Positions 1-57,257 of a stretch of DNA of 57,257 nt are shown here, in pieces. Each line of letters opens with the position of its first letter. Within the stretch, counting starts at the first letter, position 1. The translations under genes were made by a program, and so were the position numbers. Source of the DNA: a virus (lineage: Duplodnaviria > Caudoviricetes); IMG/VR virus record IMGVR_UViG_3300028806_000013, positions 1 to 57,257 of that record. One strand, 5' to 3'. The notes beneath the pieces were generated by a model. It was not told the DNA's origin. It saw nothing but the letters and a program-made list of their open reading frames with translations, and did no database searches.

Positions 1-104
1 ACAAGTGTTGATATAATCCTCACCCGCTAAAAACTTAACTAACTGCGTATTATCACTCTGACATTTTGTGCATTTTAGTTTCTTTTCCTGTTCTTTCTCG
101 TTAC

Positions 105-488
105 TCATGCTGCTTCCTCCTCTATTTTCATTTGAACATCCATTTGACAGAACTCTTGAAAGCTTCCTTCAAATAAGATGTCTAGCTTATCGTCACCATT
201 CTCAACCTTTACCCATAAGCCACCATTCTTATAAGTAACACTATAAGTAAAGTTCCTGAAGTTATTACCATGAGAGAGCCTAATATGCCCTCCCTTCTTC
301 GGCTTATTGGCTGCTATAAAGGCTGAGGCGAAATCATCGGCCTCAAACCTGGGCAATGGCCACGCATAAGGCAAAGCATCTGCCAAGGCATGCGCTACGC
401 CACTTGGGTTGCCATCCCAGTGCTGATAGACATAAAAGCTTTCATCGTTATTTACTTCATAAAACTCTATTAGTGCATTTGTACTCAT
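105..488 (-). CDS. hypothetical phage early protein
   Basis: 127-aa ORF in a leftward operon with the next gene; YxHWDGxP motif typical of small phage proteins. Confidence 0.7.
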   Translation of the reverse strand: MSTNALIEFYEVNNDESFYVYQHWDGNPSGVAHALADALPYAWPLPRFEADDFASAFIAANKPKKGGHIRLSHGNNFRNFTYSVTYKNGGLWVKVENGDDKLDILFEGSFQEFCQMDVQMKIEEEAA

Positions 489-1034: not shown

Positions 1035-1239
1035 CACTTTTTAAAAATATATTTTTAATGTAGAATGATTAAATAATACTCTATTGCCCCTCTTACCTAC
1101 ATTGGAGGGGATAACCTTATTCCTTAAATGTGAAACCTCCGGCCTGGTAACACAGGCCAATAACTGCTAAGGTTCATATTCCAAATGTGTATAGAAACGC
1201 CCTGTCTTTTCATTGGGATGGGGCATCAGCTAATAACTA

Positions 1240-3242: not shown

Positions 3243-4814
3243 ATGCAATACAAGATTGATACAAAGGCTTTTCATGAAGCTTTTAAAGAGCCTAGAGATA
3301 TATTCTTTAAGACTTGGGTATGTCCTATCCATGGGGCTAGAGATTACTGTAGTCACTATACAGAGGCGTTTGCGGAGTTTAAGTCTAAGTTTATGAAGAA
3401 GTTTATAGAGCCTTATACGCCTCAGCCATTGAAGCCTATTGGCATCCATATTGCTAAGAAGCTAGTAGCACCTGTTGGGTACGAGTATGGATGGAAAACT
3501 GTTTATAGAATAGTAGAGAAGTTCAGAACAGGAACACCAGATTGTGACGTGAACGCTGTTCGTAGAAGGATTGTTGATTTCGAATTCGATAAAGACGCTT
3601 TATTAGGCTTATGCGCTGATGGTTGGATGGCTTTAGGCTATATAGATGAGAGCTATCATATTCCTCGTAACTCTGATGGCTTCTATGCTGATGGAGATGC
3701 TGTTCTCTGTATGCGTATTAAGCATGCGGGTAAGCCTTGGGATAGTGTTAGTGGAACGATAGCTGATAGAGCTGCTAATAATGGTGTAGAAGGGAATCAT
3801 AAGACAGCTGATATAGGAGAAATATATCCATTGGCGCAAGTTGTGCCTGAAGGTTGTCCTACACCTGATGGAACCGCCGATATAGAAAGAGATATTGCTA
3901 ATAACTTTGAAACATTAATAGATGATACGCATTATTCCATGGGGAATAGACATTATAAGATGCCAGCAGAACAGAATGATTTAGGACATTCTCCAGAATT
4001 AGAGAAAGCTGTTGTAGAGGATGCTAAAAAGCATATCGTACCAGGCTGGGAAGATAACGAAGCTAATCGTATCGCTAGAAAGGCTGTAGATAATATGAAT
4101 AGATTAGAGAAGTTGGGATTATCTAAACAAGGCGAGACTGTAGACCCTCGTAATGTAATGCTGACTGAGGATTCTATAGAGCAACTTATAGCTAGCCTTA
4201 GAGAGCCTAGAAAGAGTGCTGGAGAAATAATGGCTGGTCAGATAGCTGATGAGATGTCTAGACAGCTATCCAATCGTAAAACTACAGAAGACGCAGCCGA
4301 TGAGCTATCCCTAATATTCGAAACTGTGACAGCAGACCCTGTTCCTGTCGCGATAGCCACCGAGTTTAAGGGATTCGATTTTGAAAAAATTAATAAGGAT
4401 GAAGATAAAAAATTAAATCATTTAAGATATATAGCATATTTAAAGTCTATCAATAGTAAACAGCGTGAAGGTTTTAGTTTTGATGAAGCTTATGACATGG
4501 CAGGTAAAGATTACCCAGAGTTTCATAGTGAAGACCCTGTTCCTGTAGAAGCTACGACCCCCGAGCCTAAAGCCTATACCTATTCTGGCTGTGATGCCGA
4601 AGTATGGGCACCTATCATGGAGAATATGGAATCTAATATCGCTAAAGCTAATGCGTTAGAGAAAGTAAAAGAAAGCTTTCCTCTCGATGCACTTACACTT
4701 ATAATGGGATATCATTTTGGTAAACATACGGCTGACGAGATGAATGATAAGCGATTAGAGTTTATTGAAAAGTATCGTAGTCTTATAACTGATATGGGAT
4801 ATAGTAGATTTTGA
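3243..4814 (+). CDS. large hypothetical protein
   Basis: 523-aa ORF with GGGAG RBS and an internal DPVPV repeat; no family recognised. Confidence 0.75.
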   Translation: MQYKIDTKAFHEAFKEPRDIFFKTWVCPIHGARDYCSHYTEAFAEFKSKFMKKFIEPYTPQPLKPIGIHIAKKLVAPVGYEYGWKTVYRIVEKFRTGTPDCDVNAVRRRIVDFEFDKDALLGLCADGWMALGYIDESYHIPRNSDGFYADGDAVLCMRIKHAGKPWDSVSGTIADRAANNGVEGNHKTADIGEIYPLAQVVPEGCPTPDGTADIERDIANNFETLIDDTHYSMGNRHYKMPAEQNDLGHSPELEKAVVEDAKKHIVPGWEDNEANRIARKAVDNMNRLEKLGLSKQGETVDPRNVMLTEDSIEQLIASLREPRKSAGEIMAGQIADEMSRQLSNRKTTEDAADELSLIFETVTADPVPVAIATEFKGFDFEKINKDEDKKLNHLRYIAYLKSINSKQREGFSFDEAYDMAGKDYPEFHSEDPVPVEATTPEPKAYTYSGCDAEVWAPIMENMESNIAKANALEKVKESFPLDALTLIMGYHFGKHTADEMNDKRLEFIEKYRSLITDMGYSRF

Positions 4815-8006: not shown

Positions 8007-8064
8007 TTAAGCATATTACATCTATCGTATCAATAGGGCTGCTCGCACTCCCTGAAAATAACAT

Positions 8065-8093
8065 TTGATAAATAAAATATATTGATGTATAGT
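8065..8093 (+). promoter_or_regulatory. sigma70-type promoter (AACATTTGAYA family)
   Basis: TTGATA-N17-TATAGT; near copy at 54459-54487. Confidence 0.65.
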
Positions 8094-8121
8094 CATATCT
8101 TTATAAGAGCGGGAGAAAGAC

Positions 8122-8541
8122 ATGTTCCATCAATTTAACGGTATGACAGCTAACAAGATTAATGAAGAAAAGAAACACAAGAAAGATTCTTTGAGGAATA
8201 ATATACTAGAGAAGAATCATAAGGCAGCCTCTCTTAGAGAGCTTAGAAAGATGTTTGAAGGAATGGGTATTAATGAGCAGGATAAAAAACAAGATTATAG
8301 GAGGCATGATTATATGTTCCATAAATTTAGACCAGAGAAAGATGATATTCAGAAGTTCTTAAGTAATCTTCCGGAACCATCAAGAGAGCCAAAGAAGGAT
8401 TTAAATCCTATTCCTATGGGCGATGGAACTATGTTTACTCAACATAGAATTGATAAGATAAACGCTTTTAAGATAGAAGCATTAGAGGCTAATATCATTA
8501 AAGGTGGTAAGCCTAGGACGACAGGAAGTCATCGGTATTGA
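8122..8541 (+). CDS. hypothetical protein
   Basis: GGGAG RBS downstream of the promoter. Confidence 0.7.
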   Translation: MFHQFNGMTANKINEEKKHKKDSLRNNILEKNHKAASLRELRKMFEGMGINEQDKKQDYRRHDYMFHKFRPEKDDIQKFLSNLPEPSREPKKDLNPIPMGDGTMFTQHRIDKINAFKIEALEANIIKGGKPRTTGSHRY

Positions 8542-17476: not shown

Positions 17477-19894
17477 GTGTCAACACCATTTCCGTTCAGT
17501 CCAGACCAAGGTAATCAAGCTGGGTTTCCAGACATGTCTCAAGGTGACCCTTCAATTCTGAAAATGCAGGGAGAGCAACCTTACTTTCAAGATGAAGAGC
17601 CAGAGCAAGCACCGATGGATGTTTTACCGGAGGGTGCTTTCTACGCCAATCTTGCTGAAGACATGGAACAGGATGAGTTAGAAAAGTTATCCACAGAAAT
17701 ACTGGAAGGGATTCAGGACGATAGGATTTCTCGTCAAGACTGGGAAAATACCAACAACACCGTTCTCAAACAAATTGGATTCAATGTCACAGAACCTAAG
17801 AACTCTGGTTTTGTAAACCTCTGTATGGCTTATGATTCGACGCTAGCGACTGCTTTAGTTCGATTCTTCTCTGTGGCTAGGGCTGAGTTATTTCCTTCTA
17901 AGGGGCCTGTAGAGACAGAAATTGAGGGTTCCAAGAACGAGCAGACAGAAGACCAGGCTCGGCGCATCAAGAGCTTCATGAATTATTACTTAAAATATAT
18001 TGATAAGCCCTATTACCGAGATTCAGAACGCCTCATTCTTTATACAGCTCTTTTTGGATGCGGATTCAGAAAGGTTTACCAAGACCCCATTCTAAAGCGC
18101 CCAATAGCCCGTTTTGTTAAGCCTCAAGATTTCATTGTTGATAATAATACCGTGAGCCTCCTAGATTCCCCTAGAATGACCCAAATCTTACATTTGAGTA
18201 AGAAGGAAATCATCTTAAGGCAATTATCGGGTGATTTCTTAGATGTAAAGTTGCCTAAGATTAATGATGACAATGCGGAAGAAGGGGAAGATTCACCCAC
18301 TTTGAAGACCGTTAAACGGCAAGAGGGCATTCAGACCGATACGGCTGATAACAAATCGCTCTTCGATTTTTATGAATGTCATATTGATTTAGATTTAGAC
18401 GGAGATACACTCGCATTCCCAGAAGATAATACCGAAGATGATGGGGATGAAGAAGACAAGAAGAATTCGATTCCTAGACCTTATATTGTCACTGTTTGCG
18501 CCACTACCAAGAAGGTGATGTCTATTCGCCGAAACTGGCGTGAAGGTGATGAGATGTACGAAAAAATCAAGTATTTCGTTCATTATTATTACCTACCTGG
18601 TTTTGGTATTTATGGACTTGGCCTATCTCATCTGATTGGTTCTAACGCTATCACTTTAAATTCTCTTCTTAGACAGCTTATCAATGCGGGTATCTTCAAG
18701 AACTATCCAGCCGGTCTTAAAGTCAAAGGGATGCGAATTGAGGATAATGACAAGGCATTACAACCGGGTGAATTTAGGGATGTTGAGACGGGTGGATTGC
18801 CGGTTAACCAAGCCTTTATGCCGATGCCTTATGATGAGCCTTCTCAAGTGCTTAATATGCTCCGTGAGAAGCTTGTAGAGCAAACCCAATCTTTAGCATC
18901 CACTACTGAGATACAGCTCTCAGAGCTCAATCAGAACGCGCCTGTTGGGACGACTTTAGCAGCCCTAGAGTCTAATGGCATTGTGCAGTCCACTATTTTA
19001 AGGTCATTCCACAGTTGTTTATCTGAAGAATTCCAGATGTTATATGACTGTTTTTCAGAATACTTTACCGATGAACCTTACCCATTTGCGACTGGCGGTG
19101 CTGAAAATGTGATTATGAAAGCTGATTTCCATCCGGGAATATCAGTAAGACCGGTTTCAGACCCATCCGTTATGACCAATATGCAGCGCGTGATGCGGGC
19201 TGAATATATCAAAGGATTAGTCGCTGAAGCCCCCGATTTGTTTAACAAGAGGGCTATCTATAGGCGCGTGTTAGAAACTTTAAATATCAGTGACATTGAT
19301 GATTTATTTGTGCCTGAAGAGCAACCAACGCCCCCATTAGACCCTGTCACTGAAAACATGCATTTAATTCAAGGTCAGCCAGTGGCTGCGGCTATCTGGC
19401 AAGACCATAAAGCCCATATTGAAGTGCATACCTCCTTACCTCAGCAGACCCCTCAATCTCAAGCGCATTGTCAGGAGCATTTAGCGATGCAGTATTTGAT
19501 TGAGATGCAGATGGCGATGGGTATGGAAATGCCGGATGAACAAGCGCTTCAAGACCATGATGTTCAGAATCAAATTGCGTTGAGAGCCGCTGAAGTTGCT
19601 AAGCAGCAGAAAGCTGAGATGAGTCAACATGAAGCCGCTAATGCGCCTCCTGATGCAAATACCGTGATGATGATGGATATTGAGCAGCGTCGAGAGTCCG
19701 ACCAAACCCGAAAAGAGATAGCTGAGTTGAAAGCCGAAACAGATGCTTATAAAGAACAGATGAGATTAGAGCTTGCTAAGCTGAAATTAGAAATAGAACA
19801 ACAGATGGCCCAAGAGAAAAATGAAGTTGATTTAGCGATAGCTGAGATGAAACAACCCCATGAGGAAATGCAGCATGAAATCAGACAAGATTAA
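17477..19894 (+). CDS. portal protein (podovirus type)
   Basis: 805 aa, first gene of the head module; FRKVYQD, FVHYYYLPGFGIYGLG, APVGTTLA motifs; C-terminal coiled coil. Confidence 0.9.
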   Translation: MSTPFPFSPDQGNQAGFPDMSQGDPSILKMQGEQPYFQDEEPEQAPMDVLPEGAFYANLAEDMEQDELEKLSTEILEGIQDDRISRQDWENTNNTVLKQIGFNVTEPKNSGFVNLCMAYDSTLATALVRFFSVARAELFPSKGPVETEIEGSKNEQTEDQARRIKSFMNYYLKYIDKPYYRDSERLILYTALFGCGFRKVYQDPILKRPIARFVKPQDFIVDNNTVSLLDSPRMTQILHLSKKEIILRQLSGDFLDVKLPKINDDNAEEGEDSPTLKTVKRQEGIQTDTADNKSLFDFYECHIDLDLDGDTLAFPEDNTEDDGDEEDKKNSIPRPYIVTVCATTKKVMSIRRNWREGDEMYEKIKYFVHYYYLPGFGIYGLGLSHLIGSNAITLNSLLRQLINAGIFKNYPAGLKVKGMRIEDNDKALQPGEFRDVETGGLPVNQAFMPMPYDEPSQVLNMLREKLVEQTQSLASTTEIQLSELNQNAPVGTTLAALESNGIVQSTILRSFHSCLSEEFQMLYDCFSEYFTDEPYPFATGGAENVIMKADFHPGISVRPVSDPSVMTNMQRVMRAEYIKGLVAEAPDLFNKRAIYRRVLETLNISDIDDLFVPEEQPTPPLDPVTENMHLIQGQPVAAAIWQDHKAHIEVHTSLPQQTPQSQAHCQEHLAMQYLIEMQMAMGMEMPDEQALQDHDVQNQIALRAAEVAKQQKAEMSQHEAANAPPDANTVMMMDIEQRRESDQTRKEIAELKAETDAYKEQMRLELAKLKLEIEQQMAQEKNEVDLAIAEMKQPHEEMQHEIRQD

Positions 19895-20666
19895 ATGTAC
19901 GGCTGGTTATCAAGGCAAAAAAGATTCTATGAGAAATCGTTCTCAGGGAATAATTAAGAAAGCGATGGGTGGAGTGATGCCAGGGCCTATAGTGCCGCCA
20001 CAGATGCCCCAGCCTGATATCAGCTTACAGTTATCCCGAGGGGCATATAATCCCAATGCTGAGGCTAATATTGGTGGGTATCAATTAGATACGGCTTTAT
20101 CTAATAAGAAGACGCGCACTTATCATAATCCTGAAACAAAACAGACTTATATTTCGCATAAAGGAACAGATCCTAAAGATAGAAATGATTTGAAGAATGA
20201 TTTTCTAATCACCACTGGACTATTGAATAGAAATACTTCAAAACGAGTTAGGAATGCTGAAAATATAGCCAGGAGTGCGCAAGAAAAATACGGCAATAAT
20301 ATTACTAACGTCGGTCATTCTCTAGGCGGTACGATGGCTGAACAGACAGGTCGGCGATTAAGGCCAGAAAATAGCGCAGTCGTTGGTTACAATCCCGGAA
20401 TGTCCCCTTTAAATGTGGGGAAAGGATTATTTCAAAAAGCTTCTGCCTATTTAAATCCTAATTCAAATAAGACTCAAAAACTTCAGAATGTGACTCGTCA
20501 TACAACAGGCGTTGCCCCCATTTCTATGGGCGGTTTATTTCACGCTGGTAATACCGTCGTTCATAAACCAACCTCTTTTAATCCACATGGATTGAGCAAC
20601 TTTAAAAAAGGTGGCGTAGCCAAGTTGAAACAACCCAAAAAGGAAACTCGAAATGAATGCAGATGA
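19875..20666 (+). CDS. lipase class 3-like alpha/beta hydrolase in the head module
   Basis: GHSLGG nucleophile elbow, ISHKGTD, YNPG and C-terminal His (PHGLSNF). Confidence 0.75.
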   Translation: MKSDKIKCTAGYQGKKDSMRNRSQGIIKKAMGGVMPGPIVPPQMPQPDISLQLSRGAYNPNAEANIGGYQLDTALSNKKTRTYHNPETKQTYISHKGTDPKDRNDLKNDFLITTGLLNRNTSKRVRNAENIARSAQEKYGNNITNVGHSLGGTMAEQTGRRLRPENSAVVGYNPGMSPLNVGKGLFQKASAYLNPNSNKTQKLQNVTRHTTGVAPISMGGLFHAGNTVVHKPTSFNPHGLSNFKKGGVAKLKQPKKETRNECR

Positions 20667-24327: not shown

Positions 24328-25239
24328 ATGGCAATTAACACTACGGCAATCGCCAATCTCTTGCGACCGGGCTTAAAGGCCGTTTACGGAGATTACCCAA
24401 GTTATCCTAGTCAGTGGTCGGAAATCTTTACGACTCATGATTCTGATAAGGCTGTTGAAATTGAAGTGGAAATGAAGTTCTTAGGGTTGGCTCAAATCCG
24501 ACCAGAAGGCGCACAAACTGCGACCGATACTATGGGTCAACGGATTGTCACGAGCTATGTGCATAAATACCTAGCTCTTCAGTTTCACATAACTAGACAG
24601 GCGATAAAAGATAATCTTTATAAGACACGTTTCCCATTGATGTCCAGAAGTTTGAAGAAATCTATGCTTCAAACGAAGGAAATCTTAGGCGCTTCGGTTC
24701 TAAATAATGGATTTAACAACGCTTATCCAATTGGCGATGGCAAGTCTTTATTTAACTTGAATCATCCTATTGATGGTGGTGTGTTCGCGAATGGTTTCTC
24801 GACAATTGTTGACTTAAATGAAGCAGCGATTGAAGCGGCTATTCCGATTATCCAACAATTCAGAGACCAAGCAGGTCTAATTTGCATGACACAACCTAAG
24901 AAATTGATTGTGCCACCGCAATTGCAGTTCACTGCTGACCGCTTGTTAGGAAGCTCGTTCAGAACTGGAACTCCAAATAATGACATCAGTGCAATGTACA
25001 ACATGTCATCTATTCCTGAAGGTTTCAGAACTAATCAGTTCTTAACGAATCCTAATGCTTGGTTCATCTTAACTGATGCACCTGATGCGTTTAAACATTA
25101 TGTCCGTGAACCTATCGAAGTGGATGTCTATACAGATTTTTCTACTGATAATTTAATGGCAAAAGCAGTCGAACGTTATTCCTTCGGGGTCAGTAATGCC
25201 CGCGGTGGATTTGGCGGTGGTGTAGCTGCTGGTACTTAA
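24328..25239 (+). CDS. major capsid protein (Mu gpT-like family)
   Basis: 303 aa, strong AAGGAG RBS; GDGKSLF..NHP, PKKLIVPPQL, AWFILTD, ERYSFG motifs. Confidence 0.9.
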   Translation: MAINTTAIANLLRPGLKAVYGDYPSYPSQWSEIFTTHDSDKAVEIEVEMKFLGLAQIRPEGAQTATDTMGQRIVTSYVHKYLALQFHITRQAIKDNLYKTRFPLMSRSLKKSMLQTKEILGASVLNNGFNNAYPIGDGKSLFNLNHPIDGGVFANGFSTIVDLNEAAIEAAIPIIQQFRDQAGLICMTQPKKLIVPPQLQFTADRLLGSSFRTGTPNNDISAMYNMSSIPEGFRTNQFLTNPNAWFILTDAPDAFKHYVREPIEVDVYTDFSTDNLMAKAVERYSFGVSNARGGFGGGVAAGT

Positions 25240-25250
25240 TGGCAAAAATA

Positions 25251-25277
25251 CAGCCGGTTACATTTTGTAACCGGCTG
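25251..25277 (+). terminator. hairpin after the major capsid gene (terminator or attenuator)
   Basis: perfect 12-bp inverted repeat CAGCCGGTTACA/TGTAACCGGCTG; weak U tract. Confidence 0.6.
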
Positions 25278-49321: not shown

Positions 49322-49915
49322 CGATTGGGGGCGAGGATGAAACGCCCCCTACCATTATCTTGGACTACAATTTAAATTAGCATTCAACAAAACTGAAGTC
49401 AAGGGAGGACTGGGTATGTGGGTGATGGTAATTTTAAGTTTATGGGTTGTGACGCATTTTTTATTTGGTGAGGTAGGAATGTTTTAGTCGACCTGATATC
49501 ATCAAGATTCTTTTTAAATTTGTGGACTACACCGCAATGAAATACTTTTTCTTTGGAATTATCTCCATAATTCTGGCTTATGCTATTAGTCAGGTTCAAC
49601 TCAATTTCTATTTTTACTTAAACACGCCCCAATTTCAGATAGAGCCATTTTATCCTGAAGGGACGCATATAGAGGTGGATGAGGAAGAGATTTGAGCTTG
49701 TCGGAAATCCCGACGAACTGCTAAATAAAAGCTATTCAACTATTAGATTATCGCTCTTGTAGGGGGTAGGTCTTGGTGCTATTCTGGTTTAATTCGTTTA
49801 GGCCATCTGCGCGAACAAGGTCAACCTCCTTCGCGCATGCAGCGACTTGCTATCCCTGCATAATGGCACAAACAAATAAAATTTTCAACCATTATTTTTT
49901 TGTGGGGGGCACCTT

Positions 49916-50530
49916 GTGACGTGCGAGATAGATAAAATTGGGATTACCGATGGAATATATCTTCTTTCTGCCATTAGATCATCGTCAAATGAAATTTTAG
50001 AATCTGCGCTTGGCAGCCCTGAGTCAGAAAGAAAAGAAAATTACTATTTGTTACAGAATCATATTAAGAAGTTGATTTCAACGAGTGATGGTAATGAAAT
50101 TATAGGGATAATGGAGGATTTGGCACTTTCTGAGTGTGAAGAATTTCTTTTATTTACCTGCAATTCTTATAAATTTGATTATAAAATAACAGCTCACATA
50201 AAGGATGAGCTCAGAAAACTTATCCCCAAGTTTTCACTCTCTAGGATATTTTCATTCATTTGGGCTGCCGTCAAAAACGCTATCTTATTTTCCTCTCTGA
50301 AAGAATGTAAAAATCAACAACATGCGATGAATACCATTATTTTAAATGTTGTTAAATATTCTCAAAACAAATCTTTCACCAAGGAATTTGAAAGACCAAC
50401 TAAGCTTCCACGAAGCTCTCTTAGCATTGTTATTTATGAAGAAATATTAGGGATTGGTGATTTTGGTTTCTTAAATAACATTTTTAGTATTCCGCTTTCA
50501 TTTTTTGATGAGTTAGGTAGATATGAGTAA
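49916..50530 (+). CDS. hypothetical protein
   Basis: 204-aa ORF coupled to the HTH gene. Confidence 0.65.
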   Translation: MTCEIDKIGITDGIYLLSAIRSSSNEILESALGSPESERKENYYLLQNHIKKLISTSDGNEIIGIMEDLALSECEEFLLFTCNSYKFDYKITAHIKDELRKLIPKFSLSRIFSFIWAAVKNAILFSSLKECKNQQHAMNTIILNVVKYSQNKSFTKEFERPTKLPRSSLSIVIYEEILGIGDFGFLNNIFSIPLSFFDELGRYE

Positions 50531-50951
50531 GAAAATGGACAAATATAGGAAGAAGCGCGGAGCTAGTGGCTTTATAAAAATTCCTCACTTTGTTTGCAAC
50601 AGTGAGGAATTTTGTAATCTTTCTGTATTTGCTCTTAAACTTCTTATCGATTTAATGTCTCAGTACAACGGGTTTAACAACGGTTCTCTTACTATTTGCT
50701 GGCAAGTTATGACAAAGAGGGGATGGAAATCCAAAGATACGCTTTACAAAGCTAAGGATGAATTGTTGCTAGGTAGATGGATTGCGATAACAAGAGTAGG
50801 GAATCGAAAGAAGACGTCCCTTTATGCTTTGACGACTTACTCCGTCAACGAGGATTTAAAAAAGGTTTATGACTTTGGAGTTTCGTCTACCGATGCACCC
50901 GCTCATAGTTGGCACAATGGCCTACGTGGTGGCTCGGCAAACTTTGAGTAG
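50523..50951 (+). CDS. winged-HTH protein, candidate replication initiator
   Basis: FIKIPH..NSEEF..LS..ALKLLIDL..QYNGFNNGSL...SKDTLYKAKDELL...SLYALT. Confidence 0.6.
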   Translation: MSKKMDKYRKKRGASGFIKIPHFVCNSEEFCNLSVFALKLLIDLMSQYNGFNNGSLTICWQVMTKRGWKSKDTLYKAKDELLLGRWIAITRVGNRKKTSLYALTTYSVNEDLKKVYDFGVSSTDAPAHSWHNGLRGGSANFE

Positions 50952-50969
50952 ATACTGGTATATATATAC

Positions 50970-51093
50970 GGTACGCCAGGCGGGGCAAATAAATGACGAA
51001 AAGTGGCTATTTGGCCCGCCAGGCGGGCCAAATAAAAACCATTTAGCCCGCCTGGCGGGCTAAATAATATGGATTTAGCCCGCCAGGCGTACC
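50970..51093. repeat. four phased CGCCWGGCG palindromes (candidate origin iterons)
   Basis: cores start at 50974, 51017, 51049 and 51081; the two inner copies extend to 25-27-bp palindromes; the outer copies are inverted repeats of each other. Confidence 0.85.
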
Positions 51094-51524
51094 AATGAAT
51101 TTTCAAATTTATATTCCCAGTCTTTTTTATACAGTGGTTTTAGAGGATAAAACGGTAGAACAGATAACTAATTTGTCATCGAGCGGACAGGCTTAGAATC
51201 CATCCAATTCTGGACAGGGGGCGTTTATTGATTTCAAACCGATAAATTGTACTGGCAGGATTTAAAATGGCTAGAATCGAATTATACGAGGTTTTAGAGA
51301 TATCCCCATTTGTCAAAATCTTAAGGGGGAAAACTCATGCCATACTGTTCATAAAACTAGCAGTATTATTGCTATCAAATCGAATCAATAATGCTTCTGT
51401 TATTTTATCCAGCATGGCATCACTTTCTCCCATTCAGATTTTTCATCACCCAGAAAATGATTATTTTTATAAAAAACCCTATAAAAATAGACCAATCTTT
51501 TTTTAAAACTAGGTAAAATGAACC

Positions 51525-54246: not shown

Positions 54247-54451
54247 GGAAGTCCTAAGATTATTCCTCAGGAATATATTATTGATTGAAAGTATAGCTTC
54301 TATCATAATAGCTATCATCTGTTTGAATCATCACATTATGGATTGCCCTAATCTGGATGAATGGTCATGGTATCGGGTAGGGTCATATCTTTTATTGATG
54401 TATTCCTATAGTGCATTCTGTAAATGGCGAAAAAGAAAAAAATATTATTAA
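54176..54451 (+). CDS. small membrane protein (start probably ATG 54230)
   Basis: two hydrophobic segments; AAGGA RBS. Confidence 0.5.
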   Translation: MEIEMQLSCMPMWLSRTTMNDQFEEVLRLFLRNILLIESIASIIIAIICLNHHIMDCPNLDEWSWYRVGSYLLLMYSYSAFCKWRKRKKYY

Positions 54452-54458
54452 AAAACAT

Positions 54459-54487
54459 TTGACAAGATGAAATATTAGATGTATAGT
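54459..54487 (+). promoter_or_regulatory. sigma70-type promoter driving the operon containing the ProQ/FinO gene
   Basis: TTGACA-N17-TATAGT. Confidence 0.7.
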
Positions 54488-54515
54488 CACAGTATGTACT
54501 GTAGGAGTATTTAGG

Positions 54516-54875
54516 ATGAAGAAGAAATTAGGAAGTCAAATGACCGCGTCGCCAATGCGAGATAGGATAAAACAACTTTATCCAAGGGTAGACGTAGAGT
54601 TGATATTTCATGTTTATAGAAAGAATGATTGCTGTATTTCTGTGAGATGGAATGAATTGGATAGAAAGGCTATATTAAATGAGCTTATTAATGCGATTAA
54701 TAGAATGCCTAATGGGGGTTATTGTATTGATTATGAAGAATTTGTTCATTATATAGAAGAGAGTGACCCACATAGAAAACCTAAAGATATGGTTTTGATT
54801 CTTAGACCATTAACAGATGCAGAAATGGGATTAGCAGCATGGGAATTATCAGGAGTTAAAGATGGAAATAGTTAA
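54516..54875 (+). CDS. hypothetical protein
   Basis: AGGAG RBS after the promoter. Confidence 0.65.
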   Translation: MKKKLGSQMTASPMRDRIKQLYPRVDVELIFHVYRKNDCCISVRWNELDRKAILNELINAINRMPNGGYCIDYEEFVHYIEESDPHRKPKDMVLILRPLTDAEMGLAAWELSGVKDGNS

Positions 54876-55134
54876 ACGAGAAGATAGAGAGAAGATACTG
54901 GTTACGAAAGAATTGTGTCATTCTTTAACTGTTTTTAAAGTGACCGAAGAAGAATCAGTTGTAATAAGCAGAACGGATGATGCGCGAGTAGTTCTATTGT
55001 CTATTCAAGACGCTGAAGAGGGTGAAATGAATATTGCTTTAACGTCAGAAGAATTAAGAGCTATCGCTAATCATATGTTTAAATTAGCGTTTGAGATAGA
55101 AGGACTTGATTTAGAAGCGGTAAACGCATTTTAA
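54862..55134 (+). CDS. hypothetical protein
   Basis: AGGAG RBS; coupled ORF. Confidence 0.65.
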   Translation: MEIVKREDREKILVTKELCHSLTVFKVTEEESVVISRTDDARVVLLSIQDAEEGEMNIALTSEELRAIANHMFKLAFEIEGLDLEAVNAF

Positions 55135-55401
55135 AAGGAGGTTAACATGTTTAGAGGGATTTTAGAGCATAATCGAAATGTGACAAATGAGTTATTGTTT
55201 TCGATAGAGCGATATATCGACCAGAACAAAGAGATGATTCGGGATATCAATAGGACGTTAAAGTTCTTAGAGAAGCCAATTTATAAAGAGGAGCGGAAGC
55301 GATGACTTATATCTTGGGAATTTTTTTAATAATGGCTCTAGTTTTGTTGACGGGATTTTGTATTATTGGCGCTGCGGATTCTAAGAATGGGGTGAAATGA
55401 A

Positions 55402-55767
55402 ATGAGTATTGAAAACACGATTGGATTACAGGTTTATATAATTGATTTAATGTCGAATGTAAATGGCTTACTAGCGCTTGTTTGTGTAGTTCTTTTTATC
55501 CCTACTATTTTTTTATTTATAACCATCTTGAAAGGAGAAGATAATTTTACATGTAGTGATAACCAAATAGGTAGGTCACTGCTTAGAAAATGCGCTTATG
55601 CTTTTGTCTTTTGTCTTATAGTCGGTATTTTTATCCCTTCCAAATCAACGATGTATTTCATGATGGCTGATGGGATTATTAAAGAAGTGAGAGAGCGAAA
55701 GATACCAGAGAAGGCGTTACAAGTTTTAGATGAGAAGTTAAACGAATATTTAAGGAGCAAGGAATGA
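55402..55767 (+). CDS. hypothetical membrane protein
   Basis: two TM segments; FIPSKSTMY motif. Confidence 0.7.
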   Translation: MSIENTIGLQVYIIDLMSNVNGLLALVCVVLFIPTIFLFITILKGEDNFTCSDNQIGRSLLRKCAYAFVFCLIVGIFIPSKSTMYFMMADGIIKEVRERKIPEKALQVLDEKLNEYLRSKE

Positions 55768-56342
55768 TTAAGAAAGTACACACGACCCTACTAATGACCA
55801 CTAACCATTTTGAAAGTGGTCTTATTTATTTAGAGGGCTTAAGAAAGAAATATCCACTATGTTTCTTTACTCCAGGCTATGAGAAGCCATTGAAGAAGGA
55901 TATCTTCCAAGAGCTATTAGCATTATCTAAGTTAGCTGATGAAGAATTATCTATTAGCTTGATACGGTCAGCACTTAGAATCTATACGAGTTCATTATCT
56001 TATAGAGCTGGTATGATTAAAGAGTATTCTCATCGAATCGGATTAGATGGGGAGATTGTATGCCCCGTAACTGCCGAAGAGAGAACGCATGCCAAGTATC
56101 GACCGCTAGAGCTACATTGGAAGTTAAGCGACTCTGATAAGCCTCTGGTGTCCGAATTGAAGGCTAGAGATAAGGAATATAGGCAGAAGAAGTACTTAGC
56201 ATGGAAGAAGAAGTTAGCGGGGGGGTGTGAGGTGAAGTACAGAGAAATGTCTGTTCCTGTTAAATTGGTGAAACGAGTCGAGTTAATGATTCAAAGATTT
56301 GAAGAATCCGGCACGATCCCGAATCCTTGGAACATCGTGTAA
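55764..56342 (+). CDS. ProQ/FinO-domain RNA chaperone
   Basis: KYPLCF...KPLKKDIFQEL...IRSALRIYTSSLSY...RIGLDGE...VTAEE matches the ProQ/FinO pattern (FPxCF, PLKIGIFQDL, RSALRLYTSS, RxDLDG). Confidence 0.85.
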   Translation: MIKKVHTTLLMTTNHFESGLIYLEGLRKKYPLCFFTPGYEKPLKKDIFQELLALSKLADEELSISLIRSALRIYTSSLSYRAGMIKEYSHRIGLDGEIVCPVTAEERTHAKYRPLELHWKLSDSDKPLVSELKARDKEYRQKKYLAWKKKLAGGCEVKYREMSVPVKLVKRVELMIQRFEESGTIPNPWNIV

Positions 56343-56423
56343 CAGGGGGAAATAAGGGGAAAGTGTTTTTTTTAATCTTAAAAATTAAAAAACTTCATAT
56401 AAATCAAAAGCCGGGAAACGGGG

Positions 56424-56452
56424 GGGAGCCCCGCATAAGAAACGGGGCTCCC
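56424..56452 (+). other. GC-rich hairpin downstream of the ProQ/FinO gene
   Basis: GGGAGCCCCG/CGGGGCTCCC 10-bp stem with 9-nt loop. Confidence 0.7.
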
Positions 56453-56476
56453 GGATTATTATTAATTTAAAAAAAT

Positions 56477-56617
56477 ATGGAATGCATAATCTCAAAACAA
56501 CTGAGTACCACAAACCCTCAAAGGGCTGGTGGAATTGCAAGAGCAGAGAAACTATCACCTTTCAAAAGAAGGCAAATAGCTAAGAAAGCGGCAAATGCGC
56601 GATGGGGTAATGAATGA
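56477..56617 (+). CDS. 46-aa basic protein with GGxARAxKLS...IAKKAAxARW motif
   Basis: manual translation MECIISKQLSTTNPQRAGGIARAEKLSPFKRRQIAKKAANARWGNE; ATGA-coupled to the next gene. Confidence 0.7.
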   Translation: MECIISKQLSTTNPQRAGGIARAEKLSPFKRRQIAKKAANARWGNE

Positions 56618-56841
56618 ATAAAGTCCTATGTGACCAATGTGAGAATGATTTAAGTACGACTGGCAATTCGGTAGATTGGTCTCTTACTTTAAGAAATAGA
56701 CAGATACCAACGTGGGATGCTTTTAAAAAAGGTGGTGCTGTCACAGATATGATGATATCTCCTGAGCTTAAGAAGGATTTAAACTTTTGTGGGTTAGCGT
56801 GCTTAAATAAGTGGATGAATAGGGATAAAACACAATCTTGA
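56614..56841 (+). CDS. Cys-containing hypothetical protein
   Basis: CDQC...FCGLACL. Confidence 0.65.
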   Translation: MNKVLCDQCENDLSTTGNSVDWSLTLRNRQIPTWDAFKKGGAVTDMMISPELKKDLNFCGLACLNKWMNRDKTQS

Positions 56842-56898
56842 TAATTCCTGTATACTATAAGCTCAGTTCTTCATACTGAAAATCCTTATAGTCCGGAA

Positions 56899-56931
56899 CC
56901 CCCTTGTTTTCGTTTACAAGGGGGATTAACT
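56899..56931 (+). ncRNA. outlying tenth hairpin + tail unit
   Basis: CCCCCTTGT/ACAAGGGGG stem followed by ATTAACT, identical to the tail of array unit 9. Confidence 0.5.
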
Positions 56932-57011
56932 TTGATATGCTTCATGATGAAACAAGTCATGAACGCAGCTACTCTGATACTTTTATCAGAATCCAACATC
57001 CTTGCTGGGTA

Positions 57012-57125
57012 CTAGCTGCGTACGAACTTCCCATAAGACCAAATCACCCAAATGATAACTGGCAGACTCCAAAGAAGTGCAACTAATCCATTCTTTATTT
57101 CTGCTATGACTTTAGCTTTGTTCAT
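57012..57125 (-). CDS. 37-aa hydrophobic protein
   Basis: GAGGAGG RBS; MNKAKVIAEIKNGLVALLWSLPVIIWVIWS... Confidence 0.45.
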   Translation of the reverse strand: MNKAKVIAEIKNGLVALLWSLPVIIWVIWSYGKFVRS

Positions 57126-57257
57126 GCTTGTTCCTCCTCTATTTCTTCTACATCCATTACCTGGCTCGATATTCCGGCGACCATATACTCGTCAAAACCA
57201 TTTTCCTCGTACAATTCGCTTCTATTTTGCCGATAAGCTTTCTCTTTTGCTTCATCT

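Follow-up and report, generated by a model that had tools for sequence, protein, structure and literature searches.

The phage ProQ/FinO-domain protein and its operon

The window described here is a 57,257-bp stretch of DNA that comprises the whole of IMG/VR record IMGVR_UViG_3300028806_000013, an uncultured phage (Duplodnaviria; Caudoviricetes). Near its right end it encodes a 192-amino acid (aa) ProQ/FinO-domain protein (proQ, 55764–56342, plus strand), and near its left end it contains a gene-free array of GC hairpins (region 1015–1782). The original prediction, made from the sequence alone, had joined the two features into one system, in which the phage would supply its own chaperone for a panel of small RNAs (sRNAs). 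Coordinates below are those of the window unless another record is named.

The predicted ProQ/FinO domain was borne out by both the family profile search and structure prediction. The open reading frame (ORF) at 55764–56342 scored 63.4 bits against PF04352 (ProQ/FINO; cut-off 27 bits, E 2.3e-17; 64.2 bits in the genome search), with the FinO domain spanning residues 23–112 (nt 55830–56099), and it also matched a PHROG of unknown function. Among solved structures, phmmer matched the N-terminal domain of Escherichia coli ProQ (5nb9, E 2e-9), the Legionella ProQ homolog 6s10, and RocC chains 7rgs, 7rgt, and 7rgu. The AlphaFold2 model, which was built from 38 sequences and reached a predicted local distance difference test score (pLDDT) of 88.2, superseded an earlier, poor model from six sequences (pLDDT 62.7). 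The best Foldseek matches of this model were RocC chains 7rgt/7rgu (E 1e-5, template modelling score by target 0.69–0.80, root-mean-square deviation 2.6 Å over ∼100 columns), followed by Lpp1663 (6s10), NMB1681 (3mw6), FinO, and the N-terminal domain of ProQ. An exhaustive profile-free search with the window protein returned 193 representatives at E ≤1e-3 and a single one at E ≤1e-30, so its clade is small and divergent. By sequence and predicted fold, the protein is thus a small, single-domain FinO/ProQ-domain RNA-binding protein of the phage.

Residue equivalences were taken from the alignment to solved ProQ and RocC chains, with RocC numbering as in PMC9674577. Y80 and R91 of the window protein, the conserved Tyr and the Arg of the RxxLDG motif that had been singled out in the sequence, correspond to RocC Tyr87 and Arg97, which grip the phosphate of the 3′-terminal nucleotide (PMC9674577), and both are invariant in all 38 aligned homologs. 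D46 corresponds to RocC Gly52, a nearly completely conserved residue that steadies a turn packing on the terminal ribose (PMC9674577). This turn position is occupied by D, D, D, T, S, and S in P0001–P0006 (P0001 being the window protein), by Gly in 31 of the 32 remaining aligned sequences (the exception, P0024, has Asp), and by Gly in the ProQ proteins of three other viral records, G013, G014, and G015. The PLKIGI motif of the family had been read as PLKKDI in the window, which is correct, but the suggestion that this may mark an altered tail specificity gained no support from the comparison: the G013 protein has PLKKGI and yet the hairpins of that phage carry the same TAACTT-type flanks. As G013 keeps the Gly with the same type of flank, the Gly-to-Asp change does not track the tail motif.

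The C-terminus of the window protein differs from that of its close relatives. Five close homologs are 151–156 aa long and end where the window has a run of seven G (56219–56225, plus strand). In the shifted frame, the sequence past this run reads GGVR-stop, which matches the C-terminal residues of P0002 (154 aa, 88% identical); the last 38 residues of the window protein thus come from reading on into a small frame downstream. The 192-aa form is also encoded by L100, a separately assembled metagenome contig, and its homology-search cluster consists of three member sequences on four contigs, so the extension may be real rather than an assembly error. Candidate origins of the 38 residues are a fusion, slippage, or a homopolymer error; in the structure model, residues 166–182 form a helix of low confidence.

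In its rightward operon, proQ occupies the sixth place. The operon begins at a sigma-70-like promoter sequence found by promoter scan (54459–54487, plus strand, TTGACA-17-TATAGT, 11/12 matches), and the proQ start codon overlaps the stop codon of an upstream membrane-protein gene (ATGA). A promoter-bearing element of 40 nt (TTGAYA ... GATGTATAGTCA) occurs at 8056–8095 and at 54450–54489 with 73% identity, preceding the ORF at 8122–8541 and the proQ operon, respectively, which suggests a shared class of phage promoters. Eighty-two nt 3′ of the proQ stop codon, still inside the operon, lies a terminator-type hairpin of 10 bp with nine GC pairs, followed by GGAUUAUUAUUAAUUU (56424–56452, plus strand). 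In a 66-nt context it folds with −28 kcal/mol (z −3.96, matched by 0 of 200 shuffles), in agreement with the non-coding GC hairpin that had been noted there. Two small ORFs close the operon (56477–56841, plus strand), one of 46 aa with a phrog_2384 match and one of 75 aa with CxxC...C motifs.

Beyond the last stop codon of the proQ operon, at 56841, a 9-bp hairpin (CCCCCTTGT/ACAAGGGGG, 56899–56924) with the tail ATTAACT forms unit U10 (56899–56931, plus strand), which was detected by pattern, fold, and terminator scan. The window contains its pattern only at this place, and none of 100 shuffles contains it; the fold has a z-score of −2.6 on the plus and −3.8 on the minus strand; the tenth array-type unit proposed at this place is therefore present. 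U10 lies between convergent ends, since the last gene of a leftward operon runs from 57125 to 57012, and its site is a bidirectional-terminator position.

The hairpin array on a circular map

The relative position of proQ and the array depends on how the ends of the record are joined. L100 (3,287 bp) comprises window positions 54340–57257, then 129 nt, and then window positions 1–144 (96.5% identity). It thus joins both ends of the window through 129 nt, and the map is therefore circular or permuted, with a total of ∼57.4 kb; the circular permutation that had been conjectured is supported by this contig. On the circular map, the array is near proQ, with ∼2.13 kb between the proQ stop codon and the first array hairpin, close to the ∼2 kb that had been estimated. 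The window is cut at a repeated ribosome-binding-site block (93–127 resembles 57110–57144), and positions 2919–3287 of L100 add the 129 nt that are absent from the record and then follow the other repeat branch at the contig's own end. The possibility that the genome has a physical end inside the array was rejected, as the record ends of the closest relative, G001, fall within the virion module; for the same reason, the end repeats of G001, G003, and G006 look like those of circular assemblies and not like physical ends.

The array region (1015–1782) is a gene-free, divergent stretch of 768 nt with 35% GC, located ahead of a rightward operon that begins at 1783. When G-U pairs are allowed, it contains nine hairpins between 1087 and 1693. 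Six perfect GC hairpins are found in this region, compared with a mean of 0.36 in 1000 dinucleotide shuffles, none of which reaches six; at least six such hairpins occur in only 5 of 1130 array-sized segments of the genome. The fold of the region has a z-score of −5.8 on the plus strand and −3.6 on the minus strand. The cluster is not due to chance, and its hairpins are biased to the plus strand.

All units are described on the plus strand. U1 (hairpin 1087–1110, unit to 1116) and U2 (1141–1158, to 1164) carry the tails ATAACC and AATAAC. U3 (1199–1224) has 10 pairs, including two G-U pairs possible on the plus strand only, and is followed by ATCAGCTAATAACT (to 1238; flank ATCAGCTAATAAC); downstream, TTGACA at 1240 is followed after 17 nt by TAATTT. 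The hairpin of U4 (1296–1315) is followed by ATAAGC and by TTGATA-17-TATATT (1322–1350, 10/12). U5 (1379–1398, unit to 1401) has a CCCCC gcga GGGGG core and the flank TTGAAC. U6 (1428–1443), with one G-U pair that is again confined to the plus strand, is followed by AATAGCTTTT (to 1453; flank AATAGC) and is the sole unit of the main array flagged by the terminator scan. The composite hairpin U9 (1497–1538) with AATAAGC (to 1545) is the weakest unit (z −1.5). The hairpin of U7 (1609–1630, z −4.8 in context) is followed by AAAAT (flank AAAATC) and CTGATA-17-TAATAT (8/12; unit to 1664), and that of U8 (1679–1693) by ATTAAC and TTGTAA-18-TAGAAT (1700–1729, 9/12), which is likely the promoter of the rightward operon. 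The −10-like block TAATGTAGAATGAT (1056–1069, plus strand) recurs with 13 of 14 positions at 1719–1732, so that two copies flank the array. U10 shares the flank ATTAAC and ATTAACTT with U8 (1679). The motif ATAACT is seen four times in the array region against 0.24 expected. Under a strict tail test, which requires AAC and then T within a few nucleotides, five of the ten units pass; the looser tails are ATAAGC, AATAGC, AATAAGC, AAAATC, and ATCAGCTAATAAC. The earlier count of nine units and a tenth thus holds, though the tail consensus is loose. An inverted repeat of ∼30 nt (1061–1090 with 1439–1467, 79–88% complementary) brackets U1–U6 and can close them into one domain; at its inner ends the repeat shares bases with the 5′ arm of U1 and the 3′ arm of U6, and the two pairings are therefore mutually exclusive.

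Promoter-like sequences alternate with the hairpins. In several units a −35 box begins ∼6 nt after the stem (after 1315, 1693, 1224, and 1630), and promoter-like sites with at least 9/12 matches that start no more than 18 nt past the hairpin accompany 3 of the 10 window units and 3 of the 9 units of G013, compared with a background of 2.2% of positions in the window and 1.9% in G013. The spacings U1–U2, U2–U3, U5–U6, and U7–U8 (47–66 nt) are too short for each unit to have its own promoter. The most economical picture that can be drawn from the sequence is one of ∼4–6 putative promoters, each followed by one to three hairpins, an alternation that would yield short hairpin-ended RNAs or a many-hairpin leader from the plus strand.

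On the other side of the array, the leftward operon contains five small genes and extends on the minus strand from a sigma-70-like promoter sequence found by promoter scan (1034–1006, TTGACA-17-TATTAT, 11/12), over the circular junction, to the hairpin at 56899; its 5′ part occupies 1–1014 and its 3′ part 57012–57257. Based on ORFs and a domain match, its genes include one for an LPD29-domain protein (535–1014), whose real start is probably near 966, a 127-aa ORF (105–488), and a Zn-ribbon ORF that runs from ∼108 across the junction. The record as a whole is complete or near-complete (CheckV completeness 100%), is classed as linear, and has a GC content of 39.9%. It contains virion genes for the large terminase, portal, major capsid protein, and tail proteins, together with genes for RecT, a Lar-like protein, a VRR-NUC nuclease, an SPFH protein, YopX, and the LPD29-domain protein. 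The rightward early operon includes a 523-aa ORF (3243–4814) with no Pfam or PHROG match and, by pattern scan, no relative in IMG/VR. Four tandem 32-nt units at 50966–51104, each with a GC palindrome (e.g. TATTTGGCCCGC cag GCGGGCCAAATA), lie between the ORFs 50523–50951 and 51267–51506; one 17-bp hairpin is also possible there, and these units look like operator or terminator sites of another kind than the array units. A search of the window for transfer RNA and transfer-messenger RNA genes found none, and Rfam 15 gave no match at gathering score over the whole window and only chance-level matches at relaxed E.

Distribution of proQ and the array among relatives

The capsid protein (24328–25239) has 207 confirmed relatives in IMG/VR, and identity among the best 80 of these 207 is 64–75%. 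The GC content of the capsid relatives ranges from 40% to 65%, as for a conserved virion module joined to unrelated early regions. No ProQ gene was found in the 12 longest capsid-relative records examined, six of which are at least 90% complete. The closest relative, G001, has 25 of 100 ORFs in common with the window, nearly all of them virion genes, and contains no hairpin cluster. A scan of IMG/VR with an 11-sequence ProQ alignment identified three viral records with homologs: G013 (61.7 kb, complete; capsid 67% and ProQ 42% identical), G014 (60.5 kb; 39% and 33%), and G015 (29.6 kb; no capsid match, ProQ 31%).

G013 resembles the window in both features. Nine hairpins built as AGCCYC-loop-GRGGCT are present, and seven of them, with TAACTT-type flanks, satisfy the tail test used for the window; the nine are located at 17512–17879, 18250–18265, and 20147–20289 of that record, on both sides of its proQ gene (18290–18883). 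Its gene order is that of the window, in which proQ is followed by a leftward operon of small genes, a divergent region with the hairpins, and a rightward operon. Outside the virion module, the ORFs that the two phages have in common (phmmer E<0.05) are those for the large terminase, SPFH protein, VRR-NUC nuclease, and ProQ. Three of the G013 hairpins are each directly followed by a TTGACA promoter (11, 10, and 10 of 12 matches). Within 18176–18265 of the G013 record, an array-type hairpin (AGCCCC ggca GGGGCT) with CAACTTT lies in the proQ 5′ leader, after TTGACA-17-TACACT and before the start codon, and this position raises the possibility of attenuation or self-regulation.

Hairpins with tails were counted across genomes with one regular expression, as the number in the densest 3 kb and as the whole-genome total. 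Among the genomes with ProQ, these numbers were 6 and 10 for the window (G000), 7 and 13 for G013, 2 and 8 for G014, and 0 and 0 for G015. The ProQ-less relatives gave 1 and 6 (G001), 4 and 11 (G003), 3 and 13 (G004), 4 and 14 (G005), 4 and 24 (G006), and 6 and 38 (G002, 65% GC). The G013 hairpin-plus-tail pattern was found in 36 viral records, most of which form one lineage with a single conserved hairpin.

Wider searches added no further close relatives. The isolate phage collection contained none, either by DNA or by tblastn with the window protein, P0007, and P0023; clade-specific scans of IMG/VR and scans with the neighbouring 523-aa and 149-aa proteins gave none; the metagenome scan returned only the window's own strain (L100); and the genome collection searched for ProQ yielded nothing. 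A capsid query of that collection matched only two contigs of one Actinomycetota metagenome-assembled genome, which says nothing on the host. DNA near-identical to the window was confined to peat metagenome runs (22 runs).

Interpretation and comparison with known systems

Among bacterial RNA chaperones, FinO-domain proteins form the third major class, and to our knowledge every studied member from a mobile element (FinO, FopA) works with an RNA of the same element. By analogy, we propose that the phage ProQ binds hairpin-ended phage RNAs, which would come from the array and perhaps include the 3′ ends of the proQ operon, and stabilizes or pairs them, a reading to which we give somewhat less than an even chance. 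The basis for this proposal is that element-encoded members act on same-element RNAs (PMC9977716). FinO domains hold an intrinsic-terminator hairpin by its lower part, which is closed by GC pairs, and by the single strand next to it, and they bury the 3′-terminal nucleotide with its free hydroxyl, and both RocC and ProQ favour tails of ∼5 nt (PMC9674577; PMC12001967). In the proposed mechanism, the phage protein would grip the GC base of hairpins and the few nucleotides that follow them on the phage's own transcripts, and binding would protect hairpin 3′ ends or help pairing, as FinO, FopA, RocC, and ProQ do with terminator hairpins. The array would supply a set of cognate ligands, and the 3′ hairpins of the proQ operon may be ligands too. 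We infer array transcription, the positions of 3′ ends, binding, and the regulatory outcome from this analogy. In support of the proposal, proQ and the array are both kept in G013 although nearly all other non-structural genes differ.

Several observations weigh against this proposal. The ligands known for FinO domains are intrinsic terminators whose tails consist mainly of U (PMC12001967), and RocC requires a free 3′-OH ∼5 nt past the stem (PMC9674577), whereas the terminator scan detected a U-rich tail in 2 of the 10 units only (U6 and U10). The turn Gly that shapes the pocket for the 3′ nucleotide is Asp in the window protein, and the pocket may therefore function differently from the canonical one. 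In several units the flank sits between the hairpin and a −35 box, where part of the role of the conserved tail is to space hairpin and promoter; rather than a 3′ RNA tail, it may simply be promoter-proximal DNA. No complementarity of at least 14 nt was found between the array and the phage genome (longest 12 nt, at chance level) or between the G013 array and its own genome (longest 13 nt), so there is no target in sight. None of the 22 runs with window sequence is an RNA run, and array contigs of four peat DNA runs over 1–2400 are identical where they cover it, with no covariation to test. The co-occurrence of proQ and the array across relatives, which had been put forward as a check, is suggestive only: G013 keeps both, but G014 and G015 have proQ and no array, and the resulting count, arrays in two of the four ProQ-bearing genomes and in none of the six near-complete ProQ-less relatives, is not significant and comes from genomes that are not independent. 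G002 also reaches six hairpins in 3 kb, which fits its high background. Neither proQ nor an array was detected in the 35 other records with the G013 pattern (28 less than 90% complete, 7 at least 90%), and a unit by itself is thus not linked to ProQ; as these records mostly represent a single-hairpin lineage, the reverse test speaks to single units and not to arrays. Alternatively, there would be no special link, the hairpins being ordinary terminators or insulators among closely spaced early promoters, the flank the stretch between hairpin and −35 box, and the proximity of proQ and the array only a reflection of a shared early region, with ProQ acting elsewhere, on host RNAs or on RNA 3′ ends generally. 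The hairpin at 56424–56452 follows proQ and U10 lies between convergent operons, and both are therefore at terminator positions; promoter-like sites follow hairpins in both phages; probable terminators of similar appearance occur elsewhere in the phage without an array (25251–25277, after the capsid gene, and 49327–49349); and both the single hairpin-plus-TAACTT units of the 35 records and the array-less proQ genes of G014 and G015 fit this explanation. However, nine hairpins in 768 gene-free nucleotides far exceed the needs of insulation, array and proQ stay together in G013, and one G013 unit lies inside the proQ 5′ leader. We consider the absence of a special link a serious candidate but, on balance, rather unlikely.

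Other explanations assign the array a more specific role. In the silencing system of the original prediction, each unit would be an independent trans-acting sRNA that the phage chaperone matches to messenger RNAs of the host or of rival elements, which would give multiplexed silencing. A promoter, a leader of ∼8–40 nt, and a hairpin can indeed be read in several units of both phages, and FinO-domain proteins are known matchmakers (PMC9977716; PMC9674577), but the four spacings of 47–66 nt leave no room for a promoter per unit, a plausible promoter is found for only ∼3 to 5 units, neither phage genome offers complementary targets, and anti-Shine–Dalgarno seeds are not enriched in the leaders (TCCT 4 compared with 3.1 expected). 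The domain, the reality of the array, its ∼2-kb proximity to proQ, and its presence in G013 stood, whereas the absence of targets in the phage and the mostly non-U tails count against silencing, which is left as a hypothesis and one that we judge improbable. Equally improbable, in our estimate, is a self-contained RNA module of a lineage of uncultured phages, in which a FinO chaperone with a Gly-to-Asp pocket would load promoter-driven sRNAs, each ending in a GC hairpin with a short, non-U, AUUAAC-type flank, and use them as multiplexed regulators or decoys in host takeover; if true, these phages would provide the first example both of a phage chaperone encoded with an sRNA array and of a FinO-domain protein adapted to non-U-rich tails. 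The array could also act as DNA, as a replication origin, a site of single-strand initiation, or a group of sites for a phage DNA-binding protein, with the hairpins forming cruciforms or folding in single-stranded DNA; it is a divergent stretch free of genes and rich in AT (35% GC) that contains GC palindromes, and the 30-nt inverted repeat 1061–1090/1439–1467 brackets U1–U6. The G-U pairs of U3 and U6, however, become A-C mismatches on the other strand and the plus strand folds better, which favours RNA or one DNA strand; in addition, none of the neighbouring genes was identified as a replication initiator (the 523-aa ORF has no family match), and no DNA-binding protein was detected in common between the window and G013. 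We regard a DNA-level role as quite improbable, and mimicry of clustered regularly interspaced short palindromic repeats (CRISPR) by the hairpins, as RNA anti-CRISPR decoys, as hardly credible: U5 and its flanks (1367–1402) weakly match Rfam CRISPR-DR52 and CRISPR-DR18 (18.0 and 17.5 bits), but these scores are far under the gathering value of 50, with E 2–4 over the 901 nt searched, and all ten stems and loops differ, unlike mimics of one host repeat. The idea of mimicry starts from a presumed likeness of the tails to the 5′ handles of class 1 CRISPR repeats.

The known systems closest to the proposed binding of phage RNAs are FinO/FinP of F-like plasmids and FopA/Inc of pCol1B9. Their FinO-domain proteins, like that of the phage, are products of a mobile element and have the same domain and Tyr/Arg pocket; the plasmids also encode the hairpin RNA that the protein binds and stabilizes (PMC9977716). 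In these plasmids, there is one antisense RNA that overlaps its target and has a U-tailed terminator end, whereas the phage has 9–10 hairpins with no antisense geometry, no target found, and mostly non-U flanks. The window protein has its top structural hit in RocC, of the RocC/RocR system of Legionella pneumophila, and the RocC residues that grip the 3′-phosphate have aligned counterparts in it; in contrast to the phage array, the partner of RocC is one chromosomal, trans-acting RNA, which has a tail of 5 nt and a free 3′-OH (PMC9674577), and the window protein has Asp at the position of Gly52. The minimal ProQ proteins, Neisseria NMB1681 and Legionella Lpp1663, likewise consist of a FinO domain with short extensions, and their folds (3mw6, 6s10) match the model, but they are chromosomal global RNA binders, whereas the window protein is phage-borne and has a 38-residue read-on after the G7 run.

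FinO-like genes have been found in the early regions of other phages as well, namely Shewanella phage KASIA (p031) and Salmonella phage pSal-SNUABM-01. Such phage genes are thus already on record, as rare and uncharacterized (PMC8541194; PMC9977716), and the excerpts of PMC8541194 give their role as unknown and name no partner RNA gene. Tblastn with the window protein, P0007, or P0023 gave no match in the isolate phage collection. Full-text literature searches turned up no phage FinO-domain gene with a conserved neighbouring hairpin array. The array is also comparable to ordinary intrinsic terminators that precede the next promoter, which likewise place a GC hairpin at the end of an operon or directly before a −35 box; it differs from them in having nine hairpins in 768 gene-free nucleotides, most without a U tract, in favouring the plus strand, and in being kept beside proQ in G013. 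Should the hairpins be only terminators and promoter boundaries, the window would add one more phage FinO-like gene, located beside an unusually dense early control region. If the array is the partner of the phage ProQ, phages would bring their own chaperone together with a set of RNAs, in a compact module that could be rebuilt in a laboratory strain, and nature would have supplied a test of how non-U-rich tails are read by the FinO pocket. A real link would make the phage system a variant of the FinO/FinP-type pairing of a chaperone with an element-encoded RNA.

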